A stretch of 64,000 nt of DNA, taken from NCBI GenBank assembly GCA_015231405.1, contig JADGBR010000009.1, forward strand, positions 25,423 through 89,422. Direction: 5' to 3'. Every line of letters begins with the position of its first letter. Within the stretch, counting starts at the first letter, position 1. Origin of the DNA: Candidatus Omnitrophota bacterium. GTDB lineage: Bacteria > Omnitrophota > Gorgyraeia > Tantalellales > Tantalellaceae. Shown here in pieces: positions 211-64,000 of this stretch. Below the pieces are notes generated by a model. It had not been told where the DNA came from. It worked only from the letters and a program-made list of their open reading frames with translations, and ran no database searches. A program made the translations under genes and the position numbers.

Positions 211-3200
211 GAGATCGCTCATTCCGGCTTTGATCTCTCTGATCTTACGTGGGGTCAGCGCCGTGACGGGACGGGAAGTGTTAGCGGAGATACGTCTTAT
301 ACGATCGGCATTATTTTTCATGAATCTCTGGGTTTCCATGCTTTCGAGTTTCTGGATCAGGGCTATCACCGCCTCCATGTGATCTCCACTGTTCTTGTCC
401 AGATCTTCGGCCTTCAATATTCCTATAGAAAAGGTGTTAACCGAACGCGCGCATCCCAAAAGACTTTCCATATTCCTTAGCCTTGCCCTTTCATTTTCCG
501 GGACCGGCAATGGAACAAATAACACACTCGGGACCATATTTAGTTTTTCCGCGGCGTCCGTTGTGAGGAGATCATACCCTTCGACGCCTATGACCATATC
601 CTTTTCAAAAAACACTTCGGGAGTCTCGCTACCCGGAACCTCAGGGCGCCTTTCATCTTTTTCCTCAGGTTTTACCACTCGTTCTCCCGCGAACCGTTTA
701 CCGACAATGATCACCAAAACGGCCAAACTCAAAGCTACGCACAATATCACTAGGGGAAGATGGTTCGAGGCCAGGTTCGCGAATAATCCCGCCGCGTTAT
801 CACTTGCCGCCTGTTTCAGTCCCGCATCCTGGCCAAATAGGAGTGTTGTGAAAGCGTCGGCTACAGGCCCTGCTTTAGTTGCCGATAGCCCGAAATATTT
901 CTCGGCGTAATACAGCGGCATCAGGAAGCATAGATACAGTATGGTAAAGAAAGCTACCCCATATGTCCATAATTGCCTGAACCCGGAATGCCTCATGTAT
1001 AAATACGCCTTATCCCATTTTTCAGCCAGAAAATGCCTGAGCTCATTAAGCGGTTTCAATTCCTGCCGGGCGTATATTCTCTGAGGCAGACGGTCCAACC
1101 CGACCGGAAGTACCTTTTCGGTATATGGCCAGACATTATCGAGCCGCCACCTGATCTGGAACCACATTATTCGCGCCGCCGCGTTCAGGTTAACGAAATA
1201 AAGCGGCATATAGAACGATTTTGACAGATGGTACACGTAATAATATGGGATCAGCCCTATGCGGAGGTGTACTTTAAGCATATTTGACACAAGGACCGTG
1301 GCCATGAGCAATATACCAGAGAGCATCACCGGCAGAAAGACCGATGTTTCGATCATGAAAAAAGCCGTTAACGCTAAAGCGAAGCCAATGACAAAAGTGA
1401 GAAGACCGGGGCGGAAATATCCGTACAGGAATTTATCCCTCTCGGCTTTCAGTGTCTCTATACGGACCTTTATCGCCTCGGCGATAAGGATCCTTCCCCT
1501 GGTGACGGCCCCGTCCAACGGCCGAGACGGGTCCCCATAGTAGTCGGATAACAGGTCCGCGAAGAATACCGGCCTCCCGCCGTCATTTTTTTGTTTATCA
1601 TAATCCCTGTCACCGTGAATAAGCCATTCCCTGAACCTGGATATTACCTCACGGCTCATCCTATCTTTCTCGCGGGGTCCTATGATAGCCGCGTCGGCCC
1701 TTATGGCGTTGATCTCATTTACGGCGTCCTCCAGGTACTTCAAATCCTTGGTTACCCAGTTCGAAACGTCATCCTGTTGGAAATTTCCGGTCGCGCCGGA
1801 TCCTACTTTCAGAAGATCGGCTTCGAATTCATCGATCCTGTCGCCGTAAAAATCCCTTATACCCCTTGTGATCTTCTCGCGGCCTCCTAGCTTATTCTTG
1901 AAAAGCGCGGTCACATTGTGGTAGACCTGATAGAAATAGAACGTCATCATTATGGAAACTCCCACCGAGGCGGCGGCTATGAACCAGATATCCCACGGCA
2001 GCCATGTTTTCATGCTCTCGCTGAAAACGTGTACCATCCCGGATAGCCCCGACGGGTCTCGCGCCAACATGCTCGAAAGAGGCTTTCCGGCCCACAACGC
2101 GGCCCTTTGAAGTATCTCAGCGCCTACAAAAGCCAGGAAGTAGAAAAATGTCACGGCGAAACTGAGTGCCGTAAAAATAGTCGAAGTGAAACCCGAATCC
2201 AGCATTATGTTTATGAAGAAATTCCCCCAGCCGATCTGTTTTATCCTGTCCTCGACCTTTTCGGGCTGTTCTATGAAACCCCGGCGGGCGAGGAATAAGG
2301 TGAACGAACGGCTCAGCCGGTAGCTTAGCAATGCCCCTAGTACGGCGCCAATGGATGTCCCAATGAGCCCCAGGACGATCCCGTTCCTTAATCCCAGTAA
2401 ACCGCCCGCAATGCCCGCTAAGCCGAACGTAAAGAGAGGGATACAGATACTTAGAGACGCGCCGAGTATTGCAGAAGAGGAGACTATCATTATCCACCTT
2501 GACCGCTGCCCGTGCCAAGCGAAACCCATAGGACCTGCCTGTTCCAGTACTGAGGCACCCATGTCTGTATAATAATAGACTCTCTTCCCTCTCTGGCTGA
2601 CTCTCATACCCAGGGCCTTATCCTCGGTAGTATCGTCCCTGGGATGCATACCTAAAGGCTTGAGAATATTCAATTCCGCCATGATCTCCAGCATACGGCC
2701 CTTTGTTTCACCATCCAGATCCTCATGGACGTTTATCCTCGCTTCTTCGAGTATGTCCTCAACCTTACCACGCGCTGTCCTCGTTCCGTCATGTTCATAC
2801 CCTGTCATCGACCTCGACTCGAACCAGTTCGAAAGTCCGTCCAGATGGAATACCGTATGTGTCTTGGATAAACGCATTATCGCTCCCCACCCTCTTTCCC
2901 TCCCCATTCTCACCAGGGACGACGAAAGGATGAAAGCGCCGTAATACCCTATGACCGGCATGAGGATCGTAGTGGCCATCACTATAACGCTCGGGCTGAA
3001 CGCCATAATGGTCTCAACTGAACCCGCTATACCCAGGACCATGCCCACTAATGTCGCGACAAGCGCGATAGGGCTTCTCGGAGCCACCAGGCCGAATTTT
3101 ACCGGTCCCCAGCCGTTATAATCCAGATGAAAGGACTTATTGAGCCCGTAAGGGAGCTGAACCGGCATGCCCTGCATCACGGACGGTCCTTCTCTTTCTC

Positions 3201-6200
3201 TCATCTCCTCTATTATGTATTCCTCCCTCGTGGGATAAACCCCGGCACCCGGCTTAAAGATCTTTTTCATCATATCGCCTACAGGGTCACCGTCCTCGGC
3301 CAGAAATGCCATCTCAACATACCTGTCATATTCTTCCGATATTCTCACGCCCGCGTACAGGTCAATGTTCCACCTTATAGCCTCGTTGTAAAGAGTTCTG
3401 TTCCTCCTTATAAGATTCTCCGGAAGTATATTCTCGGGACGCGCCGTATATGTACCATCATCGTTCCTCTCCATTATCTCACGGGTAAGGCATCCGACCA
3501 GGTTCTTAACGCGTTCATATCCGGCTGAAACCGTCCAATAATGGAAGAGCTGGGGTTCATTGTCCTCGTCAAGTATCTCCCAGATCTCCGGCATGGCCTT
3601 AAGCCCTTCCTGGAAATCGACCAGCATATCCGTGTAAGCCATATTCGTCCCGCTGGGTTTTGATAAAGGCTGGTTCTGCTGGCCCGGCTGGTTCGGTATA
3701 GGCACAGGCTCTGGATGCGTCCTCACGCGCATTGGGTCCATGCCTATTGCCCTGGCCGCCTGCTCTCCGGACGGCACTATATTCATCGCGCCAAGCGTTA
3801 ACGGTATTATGGTCGCGAGCGAAACATTGAACCTGTCGGGCGGGTAATGCCCCTTGGTCACCGCGTGGTCTATACTCCGGGCGGCGCAGCTGGCGGCCGT
3901 CGGCCCGGGCATGGTAGGACGCATGACGTCGATATCCGTAGCCAGTTTCCTGGCCAGGTCCACCACCCCGTTATGTCCCAATTCGTCGTGAATGGCCCGG
4001 AGAATAGCCCTGTTATCAACAACCCCAGGGTCAGCGACAAAACCTGAATAATCAGGCATGCCATCCGCGCCGTTAAGGATACCCGTGCCCGCGAGCAGCC
4101 TCAGGGTCTCTTCCCTTAAAGGAGTGGGCGAAGTTCTGGTTCCTCTTAACCGCCTTATCACGCTGGCCAGAACGGCCGGACCCAGCGAAGAGTTCTTGTC
4201 CGCCCAGGTCGGGTTGTTGAAGAACTGCGGCGGTGTATCCAAAAGATTGAACAGGCTCATCACAAGTTTCACCTGATCGATCCCGTTCAGGTATACGTAA
4301 TGGTAATTCCTTATGGTCCTCCCTTCCGCCCCGGTCTCAGCCTCTTCCGGGGTCTGCGCTTCCACTCCGGCTATTGATTCCGCCACCTGATACTCGCTGT
4401 CGGTAACGAAAGTACGTGTCTCTTTCCAGAAGAACCCGTTCGATTTCAACCAGGGCTTGAGGAACATCGTCGAGATCATGAACGCCGTGCCGCCCGTCAC
4501 AAGGAACATCTTGAAACCCATATTGAGCCATGTCGCGCTTTTGTCTATACCTATCGACAACGGGCCCAGCGTCAGGACCTCAGGCAATAAAGGTATCACA
4601 AACCAGTATAAAGCATGGCTGATAGCCACCAGTATGCCTACCGCGACCAATACCGTCCTCCCATGCCTTTTCAGAACGGTCTCGAGCGCTGACAATGAAC
4701 CAAGCCTACCGTGCTCCACGCTTTCCCTGGCAGCTACATGAGCCCTGTTCCTTTTAGCGTCAAGCGGATCAACGAAACCCTTGATGTTCTCCAAGAGCAC
4801 CGCTGTCTCCCATAATTCGTACGGCACAGTATGGGCGAACAACTCCTTGCTCTCTCTTTTAGTACCAGAAGGCCAGGTCATAACCCTGCCCATCCGGTCT
4901 GTCTCGAGCCCTCCGGCATAGACACCCGACCCCGGCACAATGGCGTCATCGCCGAAGCCTGACAATACGAACCCCCCGGATGTTCCGGCGTTAACGTTAT
5001 TATCATCCTGATTGAACGACAGTTTCCGCCATCCGCCGCCGTTCTTTTCAGGGTACATGTCTTGCACGAGTATCCGCTTATACCGCATCTCGTCAACCAC
5101 CCATACACGCCATCTAAAGTCTGTTTCCCCGCCAGAATCGATCACATGCTCGGCGTCGCCTTTTAGAGCTTGTGCCTCTATTCTGGAGATCGTTATCGTA
5201 TCGAAAATAGCCTGGTACGCCGACAGGTCCGTGGTCAGGCTGTTCACGTCCGGGAGGGGCACTCGCATCGGGATGCCGACTATACTATCGGCCACAAGCT
5301 GTCTCATCCTCGATGTCACGGCGTCATCAGCGGCGTCGGGAGCGATAAGCTTTTTTAACGTTTTTTCGGCTTCGTCAAGATTGTCCAATACCATCTGCAT
5401 GGCCTCGGATTGCGCGCGAGCGTATATTAGCCTTTTCCGGGATACAGACCGGAGAACCTCGTCCCTCAGCCAGAAAAACATGGGAAACCACCGGCGTTCC
5501 AGAGACTTCCATTCTTTTTTGTTGACCGTAATCGTCTTTCTCTCGATCTTCGCCGGCCAGATAAGGCTTATCCCCATTATTATTATCCCTGTAAGCCATA
5601 GATTATTGTTCGGAAAATTCAGGATACCGGCTAACCCCATTGCCCATAACCCAAGAGCGGCTAGCCCCGTGACCATCACACAAAAAGCGGTCCCGGGCCT
5701 GGTGGATTTTCCGGTTTCCCACAAGAGCCAAATGGGTTTGGCCATATTTCCCATATCGGTGGCTTTCTTTGACCGCCTCCCGACATATTTATCTATTATT
5801 TTCACGACCTCGCCTACTCCTTTTTTCCGGGCCTCAAGATCTATCCCGGCCGCTCCAGGGACAGGTGCCGGAGCGGGTGCAGGTGCCCGTGCCGGCGGAA
5901 CTACGGGAGGCACAGGGTCACTATAGGGATGATCTTTACTCCACCGCCATTCGGTTATCTTACGTTTAATAAGCCCCACGCTGAATATTAAAAGCGCCGC
6001 GGCCAGACCGTAAATCGTCATATTCATCATGAAAACTTTCCTCGAGTTGACCTCGTCGGAAATATATGTCAAAGCACCCGGGCTATGGAGGTTAACCATC
6101 GTCACCGCCTGGTCAATTGCCTGGTCCCTCCTCAGGCTTTTCACCTTTTTCGCGTAAACTGTGTCTCCCTTCTCTACCGATACCGCCAGCTCGTAGAGTA

Positions 6201-9200
6201 TCGAATAGATCCTGTCAACGCTTTCTTCCGTTTTCCCGTCAAGATCGTACTTTTTCATTAAGACTTTCACCGCCGATTTAATTCTGTCGTTCCCGGCTAT
6301 TGCCCTTACCTCGCCCTTCAGATCCCCGTATCTCGAATTCGCGGTCTGATCGCCCCAGGCCAGAAGCTTGTATATGACCCGATCCACTTTGACATCCTTT
6401 TGATCCAGCCCCGCCAAGCTGGCTATCATCTCCCTGACAAAGAACACCGTCTCCAGCGCTTTCCTTATTTCGGGACTTTCGCTTGGATCAACTACCCCCT
6501 TGGCCATCATCATCTCATGAACGGCCGCCAACAGATCCTTATTATCATGGCGACCAAGATCGTTATCCGGGTCCATGCCGTTAAGAAAAGCCTGTATCAT
6601 AGAGCCGGCGGCTTCTTCCGGCATGACCTCGAACATGGTCTTTTTATTATCTCCGGGCACTAGCGCCGTTACTCCGTCGGGTACCTCTCCAAGTCTGATC
6701 CTTCTCCCTCCAACGACCATATCGACCCATCTCTCGGCGCTATCCACAAGAACCGTCCTTTCCACTCCTTCCGCTATCCTCTGGAGCGCCATCCCTTTTA
6801 TGAAAACGTCCCCGTCGAACGTGCTGGATGAGCCCCTGCCGATCGATATCCTTATACCGAGTTCGGATATCTTCCGCGGATCGACCTTTTTCTGGAACCC
6901 GGGCCTCACCCTCACCGTTATCCAATTCTCTCGGTTGTTCTCGCGGTTCCCCTCAGTTATGTTTATGGTGAATCCCGTACTCAGCTCGCTCTCTCCGGTC
7001 TTTATGTTCACCCAATTCCCTTCATGTCTCGCTTGATCGCCATACCAGCCTTTATTAGCGCATGACGCCTCCAGACCGTTGGATATTATCCTGTTTTCTC
7101 CCAGAAAGTCGACATCCCCCTCTTTGCCGTCGAACCTCAACTGATAAACGAATTCCCAGTTCCTCAGGTCAAGCGTCCCGTCAGGGTCTACTTTTAGTTC
7201 ATCGTGCGTATTTTCGGCGCCGGCTAATAATTCCGACAACGGCATGTACAACGAGGCGCAGCGGGTCTTCTCGCTCCCACCTATCCGCACATGATATCTC
7301 AGCACGCCTCGGTTCGCCTGGGGATCCCACCCCGGGACCTGTTCCATATTGTCCATGTTTCCGGGTCCGGCTTCGCTAAAACCCTTTAATTCGGTCCGGT
7401 CCGTATATACCGCCGAATCGAAATATGGTATGGGGGTCTTAATACCGCGCCACGCGACGAGACTGGCGAGTTCGCTGTTTATCTGATAGTATTTATCGTC
7501 GGCTATTTCCCTGCTTATTTTGCCTTCCTTGACAGCCTCATCCAGTATATTCCCTATGGCGATCATCTTCGCCGTCACTATGAACGGCGCGGAAAGTTTC
7601 ACTTTGCGCCATTGCTTCATGACGTAGTCCTCGCTCTCCCCTTCGTACATCGCCCTGAAAGCTCCGTCCGGTTCTTCCCTGCCCATCATATTTATCTCTT
7701 CGCTCACCCATCCCTTGAGATAATCGACATCCCAGTTATTCTTCAGCTGCTCGATAAGGTAGTTCAATACCGCGGCGTACGAATGCCCTTCAGCATACTG
7801 AACGAGGCCAAGAAGAGCCAGGGGAGCCCTTACCAGATACTGGATCTCGGTCCGTTTCACCCCTTCGGACACCTCCGAGCTTATGATCTTATATATCTCT
7901 ACTACTTCGTAACGGTCGATCTCGGTCACCTTCCTCCCATCCCTTTCCGTATCCCTCGTCGACCCCTTTATTTTTATCCGGATGTCCGGAGAGATCAGGG
8001 AAACCCCGTAAAAATATCCGGATCTCCCCGGAACACAGTCTCCGGGAACGCTTATACTGAATTTTTTCCCGTCATGCTCAATAACGCAGAAATACTTAAC
8101 CACTATCTCTCGCGATGTATCTGCGGCCAACCCGTTAAAGTCAACACCCTCAACCTCACATTCCGGATCGGCTTCCATTTTCCCTCTGGCGACCCTTATC
8201 CTGAAAATTTTCCCTTTATCGGGCGAATTGTCGTCGTCGATACGCATGTACGCCGTTTTTGGGTCGTTAGGATCATCGTAAGCGAATGTCTCCAGCCATC
8301 TCTCTTCACCCTGAGAGAGCCCTTCCGGCGAATACGTGATGCCGAAAATACCTCCCAGTATCTTCTTATCTCCTCCGGGAACGGGCGTCATTACATCCCG
8401 GAACTTCTTGAGAGGGGTAATTCCTTCTATATCGGTGCCTTTAAGCACCGCCCTTACTTTCATTTTCACCCCGGGTTCGTTGACACTCGAGCCAAAGAAC
8501 TCGCTCTCCCTGTCGTGAGGGGCATCGGCAGGAATTACGAACCTATACTTTTTTCCCGCGACCGTGTGCGGCTTAAAATATCTGACCGCCTTTTCACCCG
8601 AAGCGTCAACCTCACCGTTACCTTTAAATACAACTCCCGTGACCTCTCTTTCGGCCTCCGGCTCCATTTTCCTGCCCAGGACATCAATGCGGAATATCTT
8701 ACCTTTATCGGGGGATAACTCATCGCTGACAATGACATATGCTTTGGAAGGATCCGCCGTATTGTCATAACCGAATTTCCTGAGCTCCTTAGCCGTGCCG
8801 GAGACACTGCCGTCGAGCGCGTATGTCAATCCCGAGAATTCCCCTATCGTGAGGGTCTTCTCATCGCCTTCTTTTTCCGGGAAGAACAGAGCGGCGAAAG
8901 TGGTCTTACCCGCCTCCATGGTGTACTGGATCTTCGGGTCCCTGATATCGTCATACCCGATCCATTTAATGACCGCGTCCTTATCGGGCGTGCCTTTAAC
9001 CATGCTTGTCACGCCGTCCGTCTCAAAAAGAGACAGCTCTCTTATGACAAGCCCCGTCTTACCGGCATTCATATCGTAAAATGCGAGATAATAACTCCCG
9101 GTCTCCTTGTCCTCTATGAACTGGAGGGTAAGATCGGCGTTATAGCCGTAGTTGACAAGAACATCCCCCTCGTCTTTCACCTCACCCTCTTCCAGCTCGG

Positions 9201-12200
9201 CTGAGGCGAGTTTTTTTATGGTTATTGGCTTACCGTCCACGAGGATATACACGAACACCTCGCCGGCCTTCACCTTATTCGCTTCGACCTCGGGGGAACC
9301 CGTTCCGTATTTTTTGTAGTAGTGTATTACCTCCAAGCCGTCCTTGGCCATTTTCTTCGCCGCGAATTGATAGATCACCTTCCTGTCAACGTCCTTGACC
9401 CCGCCTTTCCCGTCAAGCTCAACGCCTTTTAACTGGGCGATCACCGGCCCGCCGAAGGAAGACGACAGAAAAACGTCTCCGGCGGCATTCTTCCCCTGGA
9501 TAACCTCGGGAGAATTCGCCGTCATTTCCTTGTAATAACCGGATGCGTCCCATCCATAAAGGTATATTGTCTTCTCAACCGACTCCACGGTCCCGTCAGG
9601 TTTGATCTTCACGCCCGCGCATTTCCTTATAAGTGAACTCTCGTCGTCCTTGTCCAGATATACGAAAGCTTCTCCTTCCCGGATCGAAGCGTCCGGCCCG
9701 AGGACATACGGGGATCGCGCGCCGTGGACAACTAAGAACAGTTTTCCGTCCGGGCTCTTCGCGAAAAGATACATCGTCTCTTCATTTATCCCTATACATT
9801 CCTTCCAGTCCTTTGTCGGGTCGTAATACACCTCGGCTATTGTCCGGCCGGGGACCAACACGTCCGGCTGGTACATTTTATAGATGGGCCTCGCCTCCGG
9901 CTTATGTTCCCGATCGGTCTTTTTGTCGATGAACTCATGCCTGTATATGTAAGGCGAAGCTTCGGCCTGTCTATATTCGGCTACAAGTACGCCGAGCCCG
10001 TCGGGAAGGACCCTATTGACGCTGTTCATCTTCATGTTGTATCTTTCCGCGGATAGTTTCGTGAATTTTTCGTCCACCATAAGGAGGTTGTCGTGTTCCT
10101 TTACGACGATATCATAAACGTACCAGACTTTGTCTCCGCTCATACGTTCACAGCGTTTAACGGGTATCCCGCTCGGGCCGTTTATGTACGTGACCTCTAT
10201 CTTCTTCGCCTCTTTTGTACCGTCGGCGTAGGTTATTTCTACCTTTCTGTTATGGACAAGGCCCGTCACGACGTCTTCCTCATAATCAACAAGAGTTATT
10301 CTTCTTATCTCTTTTGCCGCGGCGCCTCTTCGTACGGCAGGGATACCCGCCGCTCCACCGGCGGGAGGGACCCCTATGACCGGTGTTCCCGGCACCCTGA
10401 CCGCTCCCGGAGCCGGCTTCAGCGCGGGAGCCGGCGCTCTACCCCCGGTGGCTTGTCTTAAAACCGCCCGGAGCGATCCCAGCCACGCCTCCCTTTCGTC
10501 TTCGTTCCTCCACGTACGGTCATCGAGCCCGGTGTTCCAATTCCATACCGCTATCCCTTCGATACCGTTATCCGATGCGAGGCTCAAATACTCATCTATT
10601 CCGGTCGGATCCGAACCCGCCGCGGTCGAAAGCTCCTCGATCCTTACGGGAACTCCCTCGTCCTTGAATGTTTTTATCGTCGCCAGGAGCGCCGCCCTCG
10701 CCTCCCTCCCGAACCTGTCGGCGTAATGGTGTATGGCCGCGTAATCCAGCATCCTCACTTCCTCGCCGTTCACCGTTCCCGTCCGTTTAAAAAGTGCGGC
10801 GATAAGGTCGATATATTCCGAGGTCCCTTCCTTTTCGGTATTAACGCTCATCGTAATAAGCTTGCCGGGGGCCAGTTCTCTGATGGTTGCGGCCACTTTC
10901 CCGGCGTATCTCTCAAAAAGGTTTACAGGAAGCTTCGTTTGTTCTATCTCGTTGAACAGGTCGAACCCTTTAAGGGCTTTATGCCCGCCAAACTCACGAA
11001 GGAACGGTTCAAGGAAATCCGAGACAAAAGCGTCAAGCGTCGCCTCGTCCTTCAAAAGCGCGTCCCTGCCGAAAATACGCACTCCTTTGTCGTTCTTCCC
11101 CGGGAACGCCGATTGGTGGTCCAGCACACAGAATTCTATTCGCATACCCAGGCTATCGGCAATGTCCAGGAGCGCTTTCATGTCTTCCTTGAACCTGATA
11201 TTCAGCCCATACGGTACCTTGAGCTTCCCGTTCTCGTCCAACAAAGCGCGCCCGTCGGCGACAAGGTTCATACGCACAAAAGTCATCCCGCTCTCTTTCA
11301 TCGCGGCGAGGTCCCTCCTTACTTCGACTGTATGCCTTGATATCCCGTTCCCGTTCTTATACCAGAGGGTCGTTCCGAAATTCTGGCCGTACCCCGCCGG
11401 CCCGTTATAATTCACCCCTACTTCAGGAAGAGCGGCGCCGGAAGCGGCGGGGGCCTGTAGCATAGCAACGGACATCTGGGGCATAAAGAGCCCTATGAGA
11501 CCCATCCCGAGGTTAACTCCGTTATCGAATTCCCTCCTAATAGAAGAGCGCCTAGCCTCCGACAGCATTTCCTCCGGGACATTTTCCGAAACACCTCTTC
11601 TCCCCGGGAAAGCCCTCATATCGAGGCCGGCACTCTTGTTCCAGAGATCCTCGATCCACGTGTTCCTGGCGGGCGACACCTCATGGCACCTGTCCCTGAA
11701 ATCATCTTTCCACGGCTTTTTAGTCACTTTCCCGGGAACAGACGGGTCATATTCGAGATCAACGGTCTCTACTACAATGAATTTTCCTTTATATACTATG
11801 CCGGTCGATATCTTCATGGGTTTACCTTTGAACCGGCTGGTCTTCGAATACTCGAATTTTTTGTATTCATACACCGTTGTCCCGTCCGGAAGCGTTACGG
11901 GTATCTTCTCGAGGTCCGTAACAACACTCCCGGTCTCCGCGTCTTTATGTTTGAAGAACTCATGAAGCCGGTTGGATTCAATGGTGTGGAACCTTGTGAA
12001 AAGAGTATGTATCTCGGCCGGAGACCCGGAACCGAGTATTATCTCCCGTTCATCCTTATCTCCCTCGTAATCGAACGAAGTGGTCTCGGTTTCGTCCACC
12101 CAGTTCATATCGTATTTGTGTTCTTTTTTGTTCACATGGTCGGGAATAATGTGCTGGCTGAGATATTCTATGGCGTAATCTATCGGGTTCTTCCCGTTCT

Positions 12201-15200
12201 CGTAATATCTCGGCAGGAAACCGTCATGGTCTCTCATGGCGTCGGCTATCTCGCCGAGTTTGGCTATGCCTTTGGCGACCTTAGCGTCAAATTCGCGTTT
12301 TTGGTCTTCGGTAGCGTTGTTATTAAGAATAGCCTTCCCCATCGTCTCCTCGCGTTTATAAACGTCCCGGACGAGAAAAATCGCCTTGTAAAGCATCTTT
12401 TCGTACATGCGGCGCCTTAAAAGCATCTCCTCGCGTTTATGTTTTGCGTCCCAGAACTCCTGGTCGGATCCCACGCCTTCCGCTTCGACGGCCCTCATCC
12501 CCTCGCCGTCGGGCATATACCTCAAATACTCATCGTATGGCAGCCCGAATTTATCCTCGGCCAATTTCGCCGCTTCGAGCATGTGTTTCCTGAACAGTTC
12601 GAGGAGTTTAATGTCGATCTGGTTGCTTGTCATGAAAGCCTTCAGACCCATAAGGGTATAAAGGTCGTCCTCGTAAGCGACCCTTTTCTGTTTCGTGTAC
12701 ATACCGCTATCTTTGAAAGCCGCGGAAAAAGGCTGGGTTCCGTCAAGGTTAAGGGGCGCCGCTGTGACAGGGGGCCTGAAATTATTGATATCCTCGAGAT
12801 GCTCGGTACCGAAACTCGCGTCCCACTTTACCGCGTTCGGGCTGTACTGCCTGAAAAGTCTCATCCCTATGTTATACCAGCCTTCTTCGACGAATCCGTC
12901 TATGGTCCTCACATAATGAGCCCCGATATGCTCGCGCCTCAATAACCCCTTCATAGTCGGCGTCAGTTCCCCTATCCCCTCCATAGCCACAAGAGCGTCT
13001 ATGAACTTCCTGGAAAGACTCCTCGGCATGGCGGCTTCCATCTCTTTCTGCCATCTCATATAATCTTCTCTGTTCCTGACCTTTAAAAGATCGTTCTCGC
13101 ATTTTTTCTCCCATTCCCTCATCTCCCGTTCATCAGTGGTCTGCCACTTGCGGTCCATGGCGATATTTACCCTAAAAAGGAGGGTTTTCCTAGCCGAAGC
13201 GAGCATCTCTAGCCTCTTCTGGAGCTCGCCGGCGAGTTTCTCGTTCTTTTCATCCACCGCTTTCTTTATTCGGACCTTTAGTTCTTCTATATCCGCCTTC
13301 AATTTCTCGGCCTCCTTCCTCTCCTTTAAACCCCCGAAATACGCCGAGAATTTTTTTACTTCTTCCCAATCCCTGGAAGTCATGACACCGGGCTTTAAAC
13401 CCTTCACCCGGTAATATTCGTTCCGTGACTGGAGGTATAAAAGCTCTCCAAGTTTGTTCCCGAAATCCTTGTCGATGGCCGATAGCTCGGCGTTCTCGGC
13501 GCTTGAAAGGAGACCCGAGGCGAAAGTCCCGAGATAATGATGCGGCGGAACTATCTCAGCCGCTATTGTAGTTGCCATTTCGGCCATTTTCCTCGTATTG
13601 AAACCTCTCGACGGATTCATCTTTATATAATCCGAAAGGAACCTGTTCCACCTTTCTCTCGAAAGTTTGGACGCCGCGTCCTTGTTGAATACCTGCATCG
13701 CGGCGATCAGATAATCGACGTCCTCGGCGTTGACAGGAACATTCGGGAGTTTCGGAACTATTTTTCCCCCGGCCGCCATGACCCCTAGCTCCCTTGCTTT
13801 TTTCACCTGAAGCGCCGTCAGTTGTTCCTTCCTATCCGCCGGAAGCGAAGCTATCTTACCCCGAAGGTATTCAGTCACCGCAGCCAGCCATTTTTCGTTC
13901 ATCCTATTGTCCTTAACTTGAAGCATCTTCTCGAGCTCCTCCAGCCTGAAGGCTTTTTTCGTGGCGGCATCAAGAAACTCATTCATCGCGGCCATGGCCG
14001 CCTCTATCTTTCCTATCGCCTCCTTGGCTCGCTCCTCCTGGTTTATTTTTTTGGCGTTAAGCTCGGTTATTACCGCCTTGAGCCATGGGATATTAAGCTT
14101 GTTAGCGCCAAGAGCGTTCCTCCTTGCCTCGACAATGTCCCTGTCTACACCGGCCGGAAGCGTTTTTTCCAGATGGGCTATAAGTTCTTCGGCCTTTTTC
14201 TGGACTGCTTCAAGCTCTTTTTTAGCGAGTTCGTCCGAAAGCATCTTAACTGCTTTTTCCATCTCATCCCTTTTACCCTTAAGGCCCCTTATCCACTCGG
14301 TCCATGTATCAGTCTGTTCCTTGGGATAAAATTTTTTCAGACCTGAGATCAGACGGGCGGCGTCGGCTACCAGCCCTTTTGTATCGTCTACCCCAAGTTT
14401 GTCCTCGGCTTTGACTTTCGCCGCTTGAGTCGCTTGGACCTTATCTTTAAGGGCGAGACTTGAAAGAGTCCCTTCAAGCCTTATTTTTATGGTATCTATG
14501 GGAGTTTTGCCCACGGCGTCCTCTAGTGCCGCTATTTCGGACGCCGAATAGGGCCGCCCCGCGAGTTCCCTCTCCTTTTTCATTGCAGCCACATAGGCCC
14601 GCCTTATTCCCTCCTGCGAACTCGCGAAACTCAGTCTCTTTTCCCTAATTATCGCCTCAGCGTCGAGAAGGGCCTTATCCGACGTTCTAATGAATTCCCG
14701 GATAGCTTCATCGTCCTCATGTTTTACCCAGTCCTCTATCTTCCTGCCGCGTCCGATTATCCCGCCGACACCCTCTGCTCCAAGCTTATTGCCGCTAACT
14801 ACGGCTTTTTTCTCCAGGTCCAGCCTCTGCCTGACGGCGTTCTCAGCTACCGTAACCGCCACTTTCAGCTTGTCCTTATCCGTGAATTTTCCGGCTTCCG
14901 TTTCCAGGGCCAGCCGTGCCTCATCCGTGCATCCGGGGATAAGAGCGGCTCTTGCTTCTACCCATCGCCTGACTAGCGGCCTCATCTCCGCCTCAAATTG
15001 TTTCTGGGGGAGGCTCTCCTCGAGAGCTTTCGTCTCAGCCCTTCCTTTAATGAGCGTTTCTAATCCATTAACAGCCTCACGAAGCCTGTCATAGGTCATC
15101 TCGTCAGCTATTTTCTCAAGATCTTCCCGGCTCTTATCGCCGTAAAGATCATTAGCGTCGGGGGCAAGCTCGACGAATTTCTTAGCGAGAAAGGTTTTCC

Positions 15201-18200
15201 ACTGAACATTTGTCCGGAGCTTTCCGATCAATTCGTCCAGGAACGACGTCTCTTCGACCGGAGTTCTTGTCCTGGCGTTTTCGGCAAGGTATTTCATATA
15301 CTGTTCCACAGGTATTTTATGGATTTTCTCTACAAGAGCCGCCGCTTCATCCCGTTTAGCCTGGATCCCATTCATTATTCTTATTTCTTCTAAAAGCTCA
15401 TCCAGGCTCATGTTCAGAGATACGTCATAAACGGCACCGAACTCCTTGCCATATAGCCGTTCCTGTTTATCACGGTACTCTACTCTCGCCGCTTCCGCTC
15501 GCTCGACATTTTTTGCCAGTTCCCTTTCTTTATCCCGAAGGGACTTAAGGTCACGAAGCTCTCTGAATATTTTTTCCCCCAGTGCCTCATGTCCTTTCGG
15601 ATCCGTCTTTTTCAGGGATCCGGTTATGGATCTCTTGACCCTTTCCACAGAAAAATAATAAGTAATACCTTCTTCCAGTTCTTTCTTATCGAACCCCGCC
15701 GCTTTCTCTTCCAATTTCTCTTTTGTCGTATCGGGAAAAGCCGCCAGACCGCCTCTCACGAATGAGTGCCTGGCGATATCAGTTTCATGCTCGGTTATGG
15801 ACCTTTCCAGGCCATCCTTGTCCATTGTTTCATATACTCCCAGATCGGTCATCTTGAAATCGGCATGAGCTCTTACATGTTTATTCCTGGCGTCAGCCCT
15901 CAAGGCCTTCATCTCCTCGGTATCAGGAACGGCCTCTTTGACCCCTTCATCCGGCGGTCCCGCTCCCCCGGCGCCCTCAGGCTCCGGAGCAGCTTCTCCC
16001 AAGTCCGCCATAGCTAACATTTCATCGAAGACATCCTCTTCGACGCTGTCCGCCAGTTCCGTCGCCGCTTCCCGAGTTCCGTCGAGTGGAGCTAACGGGT
16101 CGGCCTCCGTGCTGACCGGTGTCACTACCGGCACAGCCAGTATGTCCGCGACCGTTACCTCTTTACCCTCCCATATCCTCCTAAAATTATCCCGGACCTG
16201 AGCCACCGCCCCTTCTTCATAAACGTGGCTCACATATCTCGAACTCGCCTGTTCCACCATACTCCCGGAGGCGATCGACGGGATAGCCATTATTATGCCG
16301 GCTTGCATTACAAGCTGGGTCATTTTCCGCGAATCCGCTATTACCCCCGCTATCTTCCCCGAAAATCCGGTCAACTCTTCGCCGCTGGCAAGGCGCCTTA
16401 CAAGCCCTTTCCTGTACGAAATGATGGCCATGACAATTCCGGCCACGGTAAGGATGAAAGCGCCAACGCTCCCGGCCAAAACCGCGATCGAAGTCCCCAG
16501 GGCCATTGTTTTAGCGACCCCTGTGACCGTTCCGAGAATAGCCGCTAAGCCTAAAGCCCCGAGAACCAGCATCCTCACGTCAACCGCTCCTGACCACACC
16601 ATGCGTTTCCCGACGCCCAACAATTTGCTCCCGCCGAAAGTTTTGTGCTCAATTTCAGAAAAACGCGCCGAAACATAGGGTAGGCCGACGAGATAGAGAA
16701 GCGCGAGAGTGAACGTCACTATAGAACCCAAAAGCATTACGAGGCTTACAGCGCCGATGAACTGTCCGGTATAAATGGCCGTGCCGTAGAGAAGGGCTAC
16801 AGCTACGCCTGAAGCGAGGAGCCCCTCGGCCCTTTTCAGCCTGGCCGCGCTTGAATCCTCGAGCACTCTGTCGTACTGGCTCCTTTCCAACTCCCTTATC
16901 CCTATTCCGATCAAAGTTATCGCGCCGGCGCCGATCATAAGGCCGGGAACATTCGTGAACATAAAGAGAAGCGCTATCCCCGAGATGACCGTCATACCTG
17001 TCGTAAGAGCGGAAAAGAACCTTTTCATATCATCCGTTTTAACTAGTTTCGGAGTTATGACTTCGCGCCGTGATATCATCCTCGCCTTGGCAACGGCCAA
17101 AATGATGGATGATATTACACCGGCACCGGCCATAAGCGCGATTAGAGGTAAAAGCACCGGGACCGCTCTCGGAAGTGCTACCGCCGATATCATGGCAAGG
17201 ACAGACCCTACGGGGGCGAACGACGACACCATAATTAAAGCCATAGCCGGGACCGCTTTCACCGCTCCCAGCCAATCCTTTGCATCCAGAGAGCCTTTCA
17301 AAACAAGCTCAATATTTTCTTTACCTTTATATATCTCGCCAAACTTGGCCACATGACTCCGGTAAATAGAAAAAGCCAGGAATATCAACCCTACAGCCGC
17401 CACCACCCACAGACAGGCAGGCATCACGGTGTATATATCCGTTATCAGGAATTTTACATGCCCGCTCATCGCAGTTTCGCCTATCCCACTACCATCCGAA
17501 ACAAAGCTCATGACGCTTGTGAGCTTCATGGCTAAATTCATTACCTGCCATGAAAGGGCTATTATCACGCCGCCGAAAACTAAGCCCGGAAGGACTTTAA
17601 GCACTCTTTTCCCTCTTTCAGCGGCCGTCTTTGGCTCGAGTTCGCGTTTCAACATATCGGATATACTCAGATCCTCTCCCCTCACTCCGGCCCCTATCAA
17701 TATTTCCCTTGAAAGATCGGCGTTCATATAAGCCACGGCATATTTGAAAGCTTTTTCCGAAGCGCTACTGAACTCCCCGAAGACCTTTTCCTGGGACCTT
17801 GCGGCAACAGCCCTCCATCGGGCGTTCCTTACCTCAAGGCTGAGTCTGTGCTTGACCTCGGAAACCTTATCGAAATAATAGCTCGAAAAAGCGTTGTCCA
17901 TTATCTGTAAAAGCCCTTTACGAAAATCTGCCATATTGTTTTTCGCAACTTTAGCGGCTATAAGGTCTAAATCCTTTATTAAACTCTTTAGTTTCTGGTC
18001 GTTAAAACGCCCCTCGACTACCGCGGCCCGAATATCCAGAAATGCAGCTTTTCTGGCCTCAACCTCGGCCTCAAAACGCGCTTCCTCGCCGAACCCTCGT
18101 ATCCTTGAATCCATTATCGCCCTTCTTATCGAGCCGATAAGGCTTTCGACCTGGCCGGGCCTTATCCCTACCTTCGATGCTATGAACCCTGACTCAGGTT

Positions 18201-21200
18201 GACCGTTGAACAATTTCCCGAGCGACGCTCGCGCGGTCTTTACGCCGCTATCTTCTTTGTATTTCGCGAATATCGGATCGCCAAGCGACCAGTACGCCGT
18301 CCACCTGCCCATTTCTCCCGGTCGCCTCGCGACACGGCGCCTGAACTGAAGGTCGGTAGCCATAACCTCGTCAATATAGGTCGAGTACGCCGAGATGCCT
18401 TCCCTCGCGGATATGACGCCCCTTAGCGCGATATCCATGCCGCGGCTTCCGCGGTTGGACACGATCGTTATCATCCCGTCGTTTCCGCCTGTATCCTCTA
18501 TCCTTTTAATATCCGCGTCCGAACCGGACGCAAAAATATTTATCCGCTCCTTTGCGATAGCCGCGCCTAAAGCCTTCTCGATGCCTTTAATTATGACCTC
18601 TATCTCCCCGTCCATAGCCTTTATAAGGATAGGCGCGTTGCTATTGACCTTTTCCGCTATATCCCGTAACATGGCCTTTTCTTTTTCTTTTTCGTTACGG
18701 AATAACATTATTGTATCCTCGCCAAGGCTCATATATCTGTCCGGTATGACAGGCTCGACGACTTCCTTATTATGTACCCTCATCATGAACTCTTTGTCCA
18801 TAGTGCCGCTAGCGCCCGCAAAATCGGCGATAATGTCCCTATTTTGTAGAAATGACTGAAGCATGCTGACGTTCCGCGTGGCGTGTTCGAGGTTCACTTC
18901 AACATTCTCTTTAGCCTCTATCGCCGCGTGAAGGCCGAAAGACCATCTTCTTCCTTCCATTTCTTTTCCTTCGGTCGCGTCGATAAGCACAACCTCGCCG
19001 TTTTTTACCATGTAATCCCTGCCGCGTTTGTAACAAACGGCCGCGGTTAAAGCCTGCTCCACGAGATATTTCCAGCCGAGGAGATCATTATGATCAAGAT
19101 CGGTCTCGCCCACTTCCCCGGGGTTGGCCCTGAGTACATTCCTCAGGCATTCCTCGCCATCACCCGTCAACGTCACTGTTTGAGACGCGGCTTTGGAGAG
19201 ATCCACTAGTCCGGGCACGGTCTTGGCCCGCTTTATGATAAACTGGGCCATCTGTCGGGCCACGATAAAACTCTTTCTTATCTTTTCGGCTTCCTTTTTA
19301 TCCCCACCGGAAATGACAAAAGGCGTCATGATCTGGTATATGAGCGCGGAGTCCGCCTCGTCGAAAAGCGCGAACCATTTCCTGGCGGAGAAAGCTATTT
19401 CCCCTTTTTCGACAGCCAGTTCTTCGGATTGGCGCCTGTGCACGAATTTGTCGATCTTTCCGTAAATAATATTGGCTTTCCGATAAAGCTCCGTAGCCGG
19501 CACGGGATCCTTGCCCATTTTTCCCGTTAATGGATCATATAAATACCCTATATCCCGCCCTTCCTTATTCCGGCCCGCGGCGTACCCGCATACAAGCCCG
19601 AACGGCTCGAGCATCTTCGCCGCCGATTCCGCGTCCCTAGCCGCAAGGTCGTCGCTTGAGGTAACGACAAGAACGCCCTTGTCCATCGCGCTATATCCTT
19701 TTTTAACGGCCAGCATATAAGCACAGAGCCTGAGAGCAAGTGTCTTCCCGAATCCCATCGGTATCTGGTACATCTTCCCTTCCGCCATGTTTCTGGCCGC
19801 ATCCGCCTGTATGGCGAGTTTACCTATATCGGGAGTGCCGCCCGTAGCTTGAAACATGTCTATTTCCCGTTCGAGCATGATCCTCAGGTCTTTTTCCCTG
19901 CTTAACAGCTCGGTTTTAGTTATGTCAGCGTTCAATGGAATTATCGGGCTTCTCCCTAGGAGAGGATTAATAAAGGCTGACAGAAGGGTTGCGACCAGTA
20001 TAAGCCTGGCCACGATCCAGTTCTTTCTCGGAGCGGGCGCTTTCGTCAGATCCTGAGCCGGCTCTTCTTCCGGTACGGCGATCTCGAAGGTTTCGGCCAT
20101 AACGGGTTCCTCTATCGCGGCGGGGACAGCTCCATCGGAAGTATTCGGCTCAGGCGATATGGCCGCGACGGTCCCACTTTCGATTAGACTTGCATCCGGT
20201 ATATCCGCCGTAACAGGGGCCGGTGATCCTATCTCGGGATAGACCACGGCTTTAGCCTTTTCCGCTATGATCTCGCCGGCTCTATCGATCTTCCGCTGTC
20301 TTAAAGCGGCCAGCTCTTCCCTTATCGAATCCGGATCTTTAGCCATCCAGGCTTTAAGCTCAGTCACTCCGGGTTCTTCGACCTTTGGATGATCAGCGCC
20401 GAGTTCCGCGCCGTAGGTTCTTTCCATATGATCGTTGATCCCCTGTATCGTCCGAGCTGCAAGAAGCATCCTTTCGAACCTGGGCTTCCAGTTCCTGCCG
20501 AAAGACATGAGAGACCTACCCCTCCCCTTATAGATGTCTACCCCGGCATCGGAGAGCATATTTATCTGTTCCTTAAGGAATTCCAGGTCGAAATCCGAAG
20601 ATATGATCTTTTTGATCGCGGCCGTTTCTTTTATACCCAGCGCCCTGAATACGTCTTGTTTGGTCAGGGCTTCGGCAACCCAAAGTTTACGGACCATCAC
20701 AGTAATATCCTCTGTTACGTTCCCTGTGACTAGAAGTTTAGGGTGTTTCCTTATAATATACGCCTCGTCGGTCTTTGTGACATACCATTTGAGGCTGCTT
20801 TGTATCGACCGCGAGAACACCGTGCCCGAAGCCAATTCCTCTCGGGTAACAGTTGTTCCAAGCTTTTCACCCGCGTCCTCGACCGCTTTCAGGAAAAGCC
20901 CGAGAGCTTTCCTTAAAACGCCGTCAAAATTGGCGATATCGACGACATTGCCATGCCTTGTCCTCATTAAAGACAGCAAGGCGTCCTGATGGATCTTTCT
21001 CATGAGAAGAAAGTTATACACATCCTTGGTAGAAACGGCCGTCTCTTCGACTCGCGGATCGGCCATCCCCGAAGCTAAAACCAGGTGCCCGATCTCATGC
21101 CGTAGGGCCCATGCCACCGCCGGAGCGACGCACATGTACACATCTTTCCTTTTAAACCTGGTTATATTTTCAGCGACATATATCGCCTTCTCAAGGAACC

Positions 21201-23538
21201 TGGCGTCTATTTCGACAACACCCCTCACGGAGTCTATGCTCATAACTTTCTGTTTGACCGTTCCATATTTGATCTCTAAGGCCTTACCGGCGAGGAACAT
21301 CTTTTCTTCCGCGCTTAATAGGCCCATCATATCCCCGACAACGGCGATCATTTTAGCGTCGAGCCCTGTTCCGGACAGCGAGATCCGTCCTCTGTCGTCG
21401 AACCGGCCGCTAAAAACACTTGTGCCGGCTCCCTTAGCCATTGCTACAGCGTTACCCTGGCCGGCCGCCCGCGCTTTTAATTGCCCGTGCCTTTCTTTTT
21501 CTTTAGTCGCCATTGTCCTGAATATATATTCGTTCCCCTCCTTATCCAAAGCTATTTCATCGGGCGAACCCTTGTCATCGTTCGATATCGTAGCGGTGCG
21601 GCCGAGCGCGAAAACACTTATGCCCCCGAGATAAGCTGCGAAAATCTCCGGAGTTACCCGGGCCATTGCACCTTCCTCGCTATAGGCACGTTCATAAGCG
21701 CGGGCCCACTCCGCCTTGGCCTCTTTTATATCCTTTCCTTCCAGCACCGCCGCGCCAAGCGCGCGGTATATCGCCCTATTAATTTTTGCGAATTCCCCGT
21801 CCCACTGGTCGAAGAACGCCGCTAGCGCCAGTTGATACTTTCCCGACTCAAGCACCTTCTCATAATCGCTTTTTTTCTTAGTCAATATCGCGATGTACGG
21901 CCTTTCCTTTCCGGGACCGTATTTGGGAACGACAACGAGATACGACAACCCGTTCTTTTTCATCAGCGACGTAAGCCCTTCCGAATGGAACCCGCCGCTT
22001 ACAAGCGCCGCTATCTTTTCACCTTTCGACCTCATTTCCTTCAAAGTGTTATTGAAGAGGACCTTGTTCCTCTTTTCGGCGTCGATGTAGAACTTCATCG
22101 CTGTCCCGAGAGCGCCGAATATTTCGGCGAGGTCATAACCCTGAACTATTCCCGCTCCAAGCTCCCGGCAATTCCTGTTTATATACTCCGCCCATTCTTC
22201 GGGCTTTAACCTTCCGAGTGAGGCGTTAATGCGCCTGAACTCGGGCTCGCTTATCTCCATCTCATACAGCTGCAAGAGGAGCCTCGCGAGCTCAAGCTTC
22301 TCGAACACCTCGCGTTCCCTGGCGCTCTTCATCAGCTTATCCCCGAGACCCGATTCAAGGCCGGCTATCTCGGAGTAAAGCCCCAGAAAATTAATCGATT
22401 CGTAAACGCCGATGTACTCGTTGAATTTCATCATATTCGCGTACCCGCAGAGCGAAATGCCCGACCTATTCGAGAGGTCGACGAGATAACCATGGAATTC
22501 GCTTTGCGCAATTTTTTTCTGTTTAAAAGCGACGGACTTAAGGACCAGCGTCTCGAGGTCCGTCCGCCCTATGGCCTTTGAAAGCGCATTGATAAGGGCC
22601 AGACGTTCGATATTCGCCTTTTCAAAATTTATTAGCTCTTCAAGCTCTACTGCCCTTATCAATTTTGATATCTGGACATACGGTGAAATGTCATATCCTG
22701 ACTTTTCGATGACGGGATATAACGCCTTCCAATACTCCTTGAAGCCCATATCTCCTTTTCTGTGAAGGAAGGCGGCATTATCGACCGTACTCATGTCAGC
22801 CGATAATATCCTTTCCCCGATCCCGGATATCTGCTCAACCAGTTTTTCCAGCTGAAAGCTCAATTTTGCCCTTTCCTCGACGACAGCACGGAAACTTTCC
22901 ACATTCTCCATATACAGCTCATTATCTTCGATGCCGTATAGAGCGATCTTCTTATCGCTGATTATCTGATAGAACTCGCAAGCGCTCATTAACCCTTCAT
23001 TCATGAGATGAGCGGCGGTCTCCTCTTTGATCTTCTCGTCCGGGAAAGTTCTCAGTATAGATGTATCGATATATCCCGTTGATCCCTCGATGGCGACCAG
23101 TGAAAGGTCATAATCCGTAACCAGCTTATCGACGAGAGCCGCTATTGAATACTGGGCCTCTATAGATGAATGAGCGTCCTGAATATTGACTATCGTCTCG
23201 CCGCCAGCATTAAGCGCCCTTTCCTTTATACTAGAGAGATCGTCAGGCAGGGATATGTCATATTTTTCGCGCCTGTCGATCTCTCCCGTCACTTTCGACC
23301 CTGATACTACCCACACGGGTTTACCATTCTCTGTCCAGCCGATCTCATTTTCAACGAATATTACCGATAAAATAATGGATACGATCTTAATAAATTTTTG
23401 ATTCCGGGCTTTCCATGTGCTGATAAGTATATTGTCGTTCTCCTCATCTCTACCTTCGATAGGTTTATCATGGAAGGGAATATTGATCTTTGAAAAAAAG
23501 ATCTTCAGAAGCCCTTTCTTTTCACAAATTGTTTTCAT
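1..23538 (-). CDS. Giant multidomain membrane protein (gene D). At least 7846 codons lie in the window and the 3' end lies beyond the window start
   Basis: The start is ATG at 23536-23538 on the minus strand. An AAGGAAG Shine-Dalgarno sits 7 nt upstream and an in-frame TGA lies at 23566-23568. The frame (codon first bases at coordinates divisible by 3) stays open down to position 1. The ORF track omits it, presumably because there is no stop in the window; only short antisense plus-strand ORFs cover this span. Hand translation was checked at more than 15 sites. Motifs recovered include [22 protein letters not shown] (start), [10 protein letters not shown] at 23190-23160, [13 protein letters not shown] at 22002-21961, [91 protein letters not shown] and [21 protein letters not shown] at 186-121. 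Confidence 0.85.
   Translation of the reverse strand, partial: [7846 protein letters not shown]
7900..9300 (-). repeat. Tandem ~160-aa protein repeats in D (motif YD(D/N)xxDPxxAY...[10 protein letters not shown]). The same repeat begins the visible part of C
   Basis: Translation of 8760-8701 gives [20 protein letters not shown] and of 8280-8221 gives [20 protein letters not shown]. C residues 7-35 read YDDLRAPSFAYVRIRDPLSRDTGKIFRVDV. Confidence 0.55.
10550..11400 (-). other. Domain in D: clan GH-A (GH5-like) glycoside hydrolase (beta/alpha)8-barrel-like domain
   Basis: [40 protein letters not shown] (11340-11221) matches the GH5 strand-1/2 signature GFNxVR(I/L)P. [11 protein letters not shown] was found in translation of 11160-11101 (about 11145-11113). 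[11 protein letters not shown] at 10968-10936 matches the GH5 acid/base region (L/F)ELxNEP. AIHHY and IAVWNWN follow downstream as expected for the family. Confidence 0.5.
12900..16000 (-). other. Long Lys/Glu/Ala/Arg-rich alpha-helical region in D, a predicted coiled coil of about 1000 aa
   Basis: Translation of 14220-14161 gives [20 protein letters not shown] and of 13620-13561 gives [20 protein letters not shown]. There is heptad-like charge periodicity and almost no Gly/Pro runs. Confidence 0.45.
16300..17850 (-). other. Polytopic transmembrane block in D, about 515 aa with roughly 10-12 hydrophobic helices, immediately after the SecA-like core
   Basis: Translation of 17160-17101 gives [20 protein letters not shown]. 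The surrounding translation is dominated by 18-25-residue hydrophobic stretches separated by short charged loops. Confidence 0.5.
17660..20060 (-). other. Domain in D: SecA-like preprotein-translocase ATPase core (NBF1, NBF2 and helical scaffold-like region)
   Basis: Direct translation gives Walker A PMGFGKT (19761-19741), [24 protein letters not shown] (19374-19300) and [40 protein letters not shown] (19020-18901). It also gives [24 protein letters not shown] (18480-18421) and an arginine-finger segment [12 protein letters not shown]. These match in order the SecA signatures [85 protein letters not shown] and RGRSGRQGDPG. Confidence 0.7.
21085..21099 (-). other. HEIGH (HExGH) zinc-metalloprotease-type motif in D, in a hydrophobic context
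   Basis: Direct translation of 21120-21061 gives [20 protein letters not shown]. The motif fits the HExGH of M50/S2P-type or M48-type intramembrane zinc proteases. A carries HELAEH (not canonical) at a roughly comparable position. Confidence 0.3.
21979..23331 (-). other. Domain in D: conserved N-terminal domain shared with A and B. It is tentatively TIKI/TraB/GumN-like and follows a signal-anchor helix
   Basis: D residues ~70-520. The stretch [45 protein letters not shown] is about 75% identical to A residues 86-130. The second His motif GGFHSEG (D) corresponds to GGYHADG (A) and GGFHTGG (B), matching the G-x-x-H-x-x-G pattern described for the TIKI/TraB/GumN superfamily. The family assignment is tentative. 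Confidence 0.45.
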
Positions 23539-63980: not shown

Positions 63981-64000
63981 CGTGAAATTGTCCTCGCCAA

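Follow-up and report, generated by a model that had tools for sequence, protein, structure and literature searches.

Does the giant membrane protein encoded at this locus carry a SecA translocation motor within its own chain, and if so, what could such a motor move, and from where? The locus is a 64,000 bp stretch of a Candidatus Omnitrophota genome (GenBank assembly GCA_015231405.1, contig JADGBR010000009.1, positions 25,423 to 89,422 of the forward strand), the whole of which is referred to here as the window and numbered from its first letter. On its minus strand, a stop-free frame of 7,855 codons occupies window 1-23565 and runs off the left edge; the first ATG, at 23538, is the likely start. 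We refer to the encoded protein as D and number its residues from nucleotide 23565. An earlier note on this DNA, made from the letters of the window, had placed a near-complete SecA-like ATPase at 17660-20060 (residues 1169-1969), embedded in this giant membrane protein, and had called such a fusion unprecedented. A Kyte-Doolittle hydropathy scan of D, read together with the flanking charges, confirmed the setting: the module lies within a giant multi-pass protein and in the region indicated, although its boundaries, as set by the adjacent transmembrane (TM) helices, are 17605-19959 (residues 1203-1987). The claim of novelty did not hold, because West-Roberts et al. 2023 (bioRxiv 10.1101/2023.11.21.568195) had already reported such a fusion.

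Judged by its sequence, the segment 1203-1987 is a divergent, near-complete SecA homologue that is probably ATPase-competent, and on the homology, which the earlier note had proposed, Pfam, NCBIfam, PDB and Foldseek results all agree. Pfam SecA_DEAD (PF07517) matched with 73.5 bits (cut-off 24.6, E = 2.2e-20), and SecA_PP_bind (PF01043), inserted in the first nucleotide-binding domain (NBD1), with 64.9 bits (cut-off 23.5, E = 1.2e-17). The P-loop_SecA model (PF21090) reached 28.9 bits on the excised piece (cut-off 27, E = 1.1e-6) and dropped to 25.6 bits, below cut-off, when scanned within a 4,000-aa piece. The SecA models of NCBIfam aligned at E = 1.2e-52 (PRK12904) and E = 4.1e-52 (PRK09200, model positions 90-650 of 789), with the SecA2 models weaker (1e-44 to 1e-29, against 1e-52). 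Only SecA and SecA2 chains were found by phmmer among the PDB sequences, the best at 1.4e-37 and with an alignment reaching the start of the scaffold helix, while a word-index homologue search with the module returned canonical SecAs only, at 25-30% identity. Membership in SecA2 was considered and rejected, as the module scored 150 against 1085 bits for TIGR04397, 133 against 930 for TIGR03714 and 101 against 725 for TIGR04221, and it is embedded rather than stand-alone.

The fold points the same way. An AlphaFold2 model of residues 1203-1987 was obtained with a predicted local distance difference test score (pLDDT) of 69.8 and a predicted template-modelling score (pTM) of 0.71. When this model was searched with Foldseek, the top 36 matches were all SecA or SecA2 (E = 4e-30 to 2e-11); UvrB followed as the next family, at 3.5e-7. 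The best template-modelling scores (TM-scores) belonged to SecY-engaged SecA, namely 5eul_A (0.68/0.72), 6itc_A (0.68/0.70) and 3dl8_A (0.66/0.67), so that the structural alignment to SecA suggested in the earlier note gave scores of up to 0.72.

Every SecA hallmark quoted in that note occurs in D, and the order is that of SecA, with starts at residues 1269 (PMGFGKT), 1401 (FDEADS), 1414 (TPFVISGG), 1516 (RDYMVKNGEVV), 1538 (GRRW), 1584 (GASGTM) and 1703 (SNRGSRGMDI). We compared D with 41 canonical SecAs over the 165 alignment columns in which their conservation reaches 90% or more. The columns kept in D include GxGKT (1271-1275), L..RD of motif Ia, DEAD (1402-1405), TP..ISG and GRRW/GLH.AIEAKE, as well as R1708 of the RG.D motif and D1738, Q1740, R1742, R1744 and R1747 of motif VI; GASGTM stands as the offset equivalent of GMTGTA. 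The preprotein cross-linking domain (PPXD), which the earlier note had described as shortened to about 110 aa, is not shortened: from ISG to GRRW it spans 119 aa in D, and for the 41 canonical SecAs the median is 107 (range 101-215). The second nucleotide-binding domain (NBD2) is also of ordinary length, with 183 aa against a canonical median of 184.

D has lost or reduced other parts of SecA, namely the N-terminal ~40 aa, the greater part of the helical wing domain, and the C-terminal tail. The segment before Walker A has 68 aa (canonical median 106), the wing-domain span, from the scaffold helix to the ID..W-type helix, 64 aa (median 104), and the tail after the finger hairpin 48 aa (median 95). 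The canonical N-terminal lipid-binding segment is replaced by the TM helix 1184-1202 and a 68-aa linker. At the other end, PF02810, the C-terminal Zn-finger/SecB-binding tail, gave no match, and the tail of the module continues into a TM helix.

The helical scaffold and its two-helix finger, which in SecA serve channel docking and pushing, needed closer attention. Of the profiles that the earlier note had proposed as a check, SecA_DEAD and SecA_PP_bind came out above their cut-offs as given above, whereas SecA_SW matched neither D nor nine relatives, even at E<=10, when their C-terminal pieces were scanned. It was at the level of profile-profile comparison only that the scaffold was recognised: hhalign aligned the profile of the embedded family with that of the canonical SecA C-terminus in the correct register, with a probability of 75%, E = 2.5e-5 and a score of 40.8, against scores of at most 12.9 in 30 column shuffles and 17.1 with a reversed template. 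The matched segment, L..ID..W..HL..MD.LR...QKDPL.EYK, corresponds to the two-helix-finger part of the scaffold, and the long scaffold helix was also aligned by phmmer and NCBIfam. In the AlphaFold2 model, the region begins with a long helix of 48 residues (1803-1850), followed by two short helices and then by a helical hairpin (1878-1918 and 1925-1958; 1878-1958 overall). The connector of ~27 residues between the long helix and the hairpin (1851-1877) stands where most of the helical wing domain would be, and the two short helices modelled in the wing region do not qualify as a wing domain. From the hhalign match and the modelling, we conclude that D keeps the scaffold in a divergent form and that its wing is vestigial.

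An exhaustive HMMER search of 1.84 billion protein representatives, and not the word-index search, brought up the closest relatives of the module. The eight best matches (E = 6e-206 to 3e-53) are all large or truncated proteins; the closest, P0080, covers the whole module at 47% identity (E = 6e-206), and P0081, P0082 and P0083 are 38-41% identical to the module of D. Similar modules lie within proteins of 2,400-6,400 aa (P0084, P0085, P0087, P0095, P0111, P0116, P0118 and P0120). From about E = 1e-37 downward, the matches are mostly of SecA-like length (650-1,300 aa), with further large proteins interspersed. Source labels read Candidatus Omnitrophota for 9 of the 10 matches checked and 'bacterium' only for the other; among the eight best, six were checked and the labels were Candidatus Omnitrophota for five and 'bacterium' only for one. 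Judged by these matches, the module of D falls within the clade formed by the SecA-like modules that giant Omnitrophota proteins carry.

The relatives share more than the module itself. A cassette that consists of a TM helix, the SecA-like module and, behind it, a bundle of ~10 TM helices (D 1214-2530) has a collinear counterpart in each of P0080, P0230 and P0083 and is also conserved in P0081 and P0082. The bundle is 40% identical in P0080 and detectable in ten other relatives, while an N-terminal module like that of D occurs in P0230 and in the ORF upstream of P0083. Walker A, DEAD, GASGTM, the arginine of RG.D in motif V and the motif VI arginines are shared by D and 13 embedded relatives, at 24-47% identity.

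Two of the relatives have features of their own. P0083 (L004 4314-18106; NCBI GCA_026387155.1, JAPLMF010000026.1) starts inside NBD1 and overlaps the upstream ORF of 1,923 aa, in which the D-like N-terminal module and the beginning of the SecA module are found; the two ORFs are probably a single gene of ~4,600 aa, divided either by a frameshift or through an error of assembly. P0116 (NCBI MFH1846136.1, 4,930 aa, Candidatus Omnitrophota) carries two SecA-like modules, at residues ~1312-1984 and 3054-3597.

Where the module would stand relative to the membrane can be read from the hydropathy scan. The Lys/Arg-rich N-terminus of D suggests an orientation with the N-terminus inside; therefore, residues 77-1183, which lie between the first two TM helices, would lie outside the cytoplasm, and the SecA-like module would lie inside it, where an ATPase has to be. 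In the bundle directly behind the module, every second helix is followed by a Lys/Arg-rich loop, with conserved loop motifs after helix 2 (VKKFSxxYKG) and helix 8 (R.A.IESK..G). This pattern suggests five hairpins, and the chain after residue 2393 would therefore start in the cytoplasm. Behind the bundle, D continues with a long stretch without TM helices (2394-5847, 3,450 aa) and then a second TM cluster (5848-7621).

Taken as a whole, a membrane-tethered SecA-type translocation ATPase acting on giant-protein segments is the best explanation for these features and, in our judgement, a probable one, if far from certain. The TM helix on the N-terminal side and the bundle on the C-terminal side would hold the module at the cytoplasmic membrane face, and this tether would plausibly substitute for the lipid-binding N-terminus of free SecA. 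There, PPXD, NBD2 and scaffold would together clamp a polypeptide, which the module would push through a channel; the simplest candidate for this channel is the housekeeping SecYEG. Perhaps the cargo consists of D's own large extracytoplasmic segments, such as loops in the TM cluster 5848-7621; the idea that a giant protein exports itself is a published hypothesis (bioRxiv 10.1101/2023.11.21.568195) that would extend by analogy to D, and the function suggested in the earlier note, translocation of the protein's own distal domains or of partner giants, coincides with it. D would indeed need export capacity, with 77-1183 outside the cell if its N-terminus is inside.

The cargo may also, or instead, include the paralogous giant proteins B and C encoded in the same window, which share the N-terminal exported module of D and in which domain profile scans saw no SecA module. 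This shared module comprises ~550-620 aa and follows the signal-anchor in B and C as it does in D. It carries the motif IVNIQDAHSS..AQYSIA...LSLVA.EGSTGYIDTS, is 41% identical between C and D over 624 aa and 27% between B and D over 541 aa, and has no match in Pfam, NCBIfam or PDB. Domain profile scans of the window proteins detected no canonical secA, and no SecY2 or Asp partner was found in the window. Among genome contigs, a search for related loci gave only an unrelated canonical SecA in an Oscillospiraceae metagenome-assembled genome, and among metagenome contigs it gave no match.

Several observations weigh against this explanation. Of the 165 columns with at least 90% conservation among canonical SecAs, D keeps only 77, and its FGFDYLRD motif is lost. 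The scores with the NCBIfam equivalog models are far below the cut-offs, with 179 bits against 814 for PRK12904 and 156 against 800 for TIGR00963. The SecA-like shape of the AlphaFold2 model is partly inherited, because the 41 canonical SecAs were included in its input alignment, and the pLDDT of the C-terminal helices is low (35-70). Furthermore, by the positive-inside pattern, the 3,450 aa that follow the bundle would begin in the cytoplasm, and 77-1183, which among the clearly exported segments is the largest, precedes the motor in the chain, so that action in cis on this segment would have to be post-translational.

The cytoplasmic start predicted for much of the chain past the module (2394-5847) would suit an ATPase that handles polypeptides without translocating them, in which the SecA clamp binds, unfolds or holds cytoplasmic stretches of the giant chain during assembly, quality control or regulation. 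The strong divergence of the module from canonical SecA fits this role too, as do the typically cytoplasmic enzyme domains (PEP-utilising, phosphoglucomutase/phosphomannomutase and guanylate kinase) of the neighbouring giants. We regard it as unlikely, since the scaffold and the two-helix-finger hairpin are kept, the module sits strictly between TM segments, and the giants do have large segments that require export.

The constant company of the bundle raises another alternative, that the motor and the bundle form a self-contained translocon independent of SecYEG, with the bundle as the channel, much like a fused SecA2/SecY2 with an unrelated membrane domain. Besides co-occurring with the module across relatives, the bundle resembles SecY in its ~10 helices and has conserved cytoplasmic loop motifs such as VKKFSxxYKG, and the module is without SecA's membrane- and lipid-binding N-terminus. 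The bundle had, however, no homologues in the word-index search, and its 10-member profile found no sequence match in Pfam or PDB, SecY included. Its AlphaFold2 model is weak (pLDDT 61), and Foldseek gave nothing significant with it, the best match being to major facilitator superfamily (MFS) transporters at E = 0.37, with no match to SecY. By sequence and fold searches, no relative of the bundle was detectable outside the embedded SecA-like family. A likeness to SecY is thus unsupported, although the model of the bundle is too poor to count against it; plain anchoring explains the co-occurrence equally well; and complete Omnitrophota genomes keep SecYEG, together with SecB and SecD (bioRxiv 10.1101/2023.11.21.568195). 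We therefore consider such a translocon quite improbable, and more so its fuller form, in which the single chain would thread itself and the paralogues sharing its N-terminal exported module; if true, it would represent a previously unrecognised type of protein-secretion machine.

A decayed SecA copy, kept as a structural spacer without ATPase activity, would be in keeping with the long branches, the 25-30% identity to SecA and the changes in over half of the columns conserved in SecA. Against such a relic stand the preserved sizes of PPXD and NBD2 and the conservation of Walker A, DEAD, motif III and the motif V and VI arginines across the 14 members, whose identities are 24-47%; this conservation speaks for selection on the ATPase function and makes decay very unlikely. 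A generic superfamily 2 (SF2) helicase acting on nucleic acid, for which a sub-threshold match to the generic Pfam DEAD model (E = 0.026) and the presence of UvrB, DinG and MDA5 in Foldseek at E ~1e-7 to 1e-6 could be cited, is hardly credible and was rejected on the Pfam, NCBIfam and Foldseek results: all strong matches are to SecA, by at least 20 orders of magnitude, and the assignment to an SF2 family without GRRWSDGLH and scaffold, which the earlier note had set against its own claim, is not what was found, since the Pfam, NCBIfam, PDB and Foldseek tests all gave SecA and GRRWSxGLHxAIEAKE, the SecA-specific PPXD and the scaffold are present.

Table 1. Giant ORFs of the window and the parts of D in and around its SecA-like module; positions are nucleotides of the window, and residues are those of D
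Feature	Position	Strand	Residues or length	Remarks
Giant ORF D	1..23538	minus	at least 7,846 aa	from ATG at 23538; C-terminus beyond left edge
N-terminal signal-anchor TM helix	23338..23394	minus	58-76	preceded by Lys/Arg-rich N-terminus
TM helix 2	19960..20016	minus	1184-1202	directly upstream of SecA-like module
Whole SecA-like module	17605..19959	minus	1203-1987 (~785 aa)	bounded by TM helices
NBD1, first part	19303..19815	minus	1251-1421	Walker A, motif Ia SSDDLAARD, Walker B DEAD
Walker A GFGKT	19741-19755	minus	1271-1275	PMGFGKT at 19741-19761
Walker B DEAD	19351-19362	minus	1402-1405	
PPXD	18946..19302	minus	1422-1540	SecA_PP_bind, E = 1.2e-17
NBD1, second part	18766..18945	minus	1541-1600	SFGLHAAIEAKE and motif III equivalent GASGTM
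NBD2	18271..18765	minus	1601-1765	motif V SNRGSRGMDI (R1708); motif VI QFRRRVARR (R1742, R1744, R1747)
Helical scaffold-like region	17692..18159	minus	1803-1958	
~10-TM bundle	16387..17604	minus	1988-2393	directly downstream of module
Giant ORF C	26151-34625	minus	2,824 aa	
Giant ORF B	34698-46808	minus	4,036 aa	
Giant ORF A	46971 to at least 63998	minus	at least 5,675 aa	N-terminus beyond right edge

Four giant ORFs in tandem on the same strand (D, C, B and A) almost fill window 1-63998 and are mosaically paralogous. Residues 8-2608 of A are 65% identical to residues 5091-7644 of D, and A, C and D are also related to one another in their C-terminal ~200 aa. A and D have in common a weak match to glycosyltransferase family 2 (GT2) inside the TM cluster (D residues ~6971-7076).

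The other giants carry enzyme domains of different kinds. In C (26154-34625, minus strand), the phosphoenolpyruvate (PEP)-binding domain of PEP-utilising enzymes occupies residues 1664-1933 (E = 5e-31) and is followed by a weak HPr-like segment (residues 2071-2140); the two are parts of a phosphotransfer chain of the enzyme I/HPr type of the phosphotransferase system, here within a membrane protein of 2,824 aa. A complete set of phosphoglucomutase/phosphomannomutase domains I-III was identified in B (34701-46808) at residues 1017-1419 (E = 1e-17 to 1e-20), along with a weak CofD-like domain at residues 3319-3501. Two guanylate-kinase-like domains (residues ~2611-2745 and 2983-3117, E = 8e-20 and 2e-24, respectively) and a class I S-adenosylmethionine (SAM) methyltransferase domain (residues ~3600-3735, E = 8e-15) are found in A (46974-63998).

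Between D and C, a frameshift-broken IS66-family transposase is located on the minus strand (window 24066-25427). Two of its ORFs, 24610-25095 and 24066-24662, cover the consecutive positions 57-205 and 203-384 of the NF033517 profile, and a third ORF upstream (25098-25427) has a CxxC motif. The GC content of this region is lower, at 0.45.

A SecA motor built into its substrate and fixed to the membrane is the leading clue to how cells insert and export proteins of thousands to more than 100,000 residues. As reported earlier, most giant proteins of Omnitrophota contain divergent SecA_DEAD and preprotein-binding domains that adjoin TM regions, and all full-length genes for them encode many TM regions (West-Roberts et al. 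2023, bioRxiv 10.1101/2023.11.21.568195). The embedded SecAs formed a long-branched clade apart from the normal-length SecA of the same complete genomes, some Actinobacteriota giants carried the same SecA domains, and exporting either the giant itself or accessory proteins was proposed as their role (bioRxiv 10.1101/2023.11.21.568195). More recently, a cluster of 20 proteins with a PF07517 architecture was described among 916 long proteins (Nielsen and Lui 2026).

D resembles the Omnitrophota giants of West-Roberts et al. ('Archaeovorin'- and 'Dockerin'-type) in having SecA_DEAD and SecA_PP_bind next to TM segments in a very large multi-TM protein, with a highly divergent sequence, no Pfam match to SecA_SW and nearest relatives labelled Candidatus Omnitrophota; glycosyltransferase- and methyltransferase-type domains are likewise found here in the neighbouring and paralogous giants. 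It differs from them in several respects. Whereas that set exceeds 30 thousand residues, the present locus is a tandem array of four proteins of 2.8 to ~8 thousand residues; D has its module in the N-terminal quarter rather than close to the C-terminus; the closest database protein is only 47% identical; and although the helical scaffold and two-helix finger were reported absent from the SecA modules of giant proteins (bioRxiv 10.1101/2023.11.21.568195), profile-profile comparison and modelling show that D retains a scaffold and a two-helix-finger-like hairpin, with only the wing and tail reduced. The retention of the scaffold thus refines the published picture, as the literature had stated the opposite on the basis of Pfam, and the conserved 10-TM partner bundle behind the motor is a second, modest refinement. 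With ~785 aa, clear TM boundaries, intact catalytic motifs and the scaffold and finger kept, the compact module would lend itself well to assays of ATPase activity and SecYEG docking.

Compared with canonical SecA (PDB 3din, 5eul, 1m6n), the module has the same order of NBD1, PPXD, NBD1, NBD2 and scaffold, the same ATPase motifs and a matching fold (TM-scores of 0.6-0.72). Unlike canonical SecA, it is covalently flanked by TM helices and not free in the cytosol, is 25-30% identical to it, and has neither the N-terminal ~40 aa, nor most of the wing, nor the C-terminal Zn-finger/SecB-binding tail. SecA2 of Gram-positive bacteria and mycobacteria offers a further parallel, as the module of D is likewise a second, divergent paralogue of SecA that presumably exists alongside a housekeeping SecA and plausibly serves special substrates, and it matches the SecA2 structures PDB 4uaq, 6sxh and 6t4h; SecA2 proteins are, unlike it, stand-alone and soluble. 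Reduced wing domains are also known from mycobacterial SecA2. The module of D is therefore neither a first nor a new kind of system, but a new example of the arrangement of SecA within giant proteins that was described in 2023.

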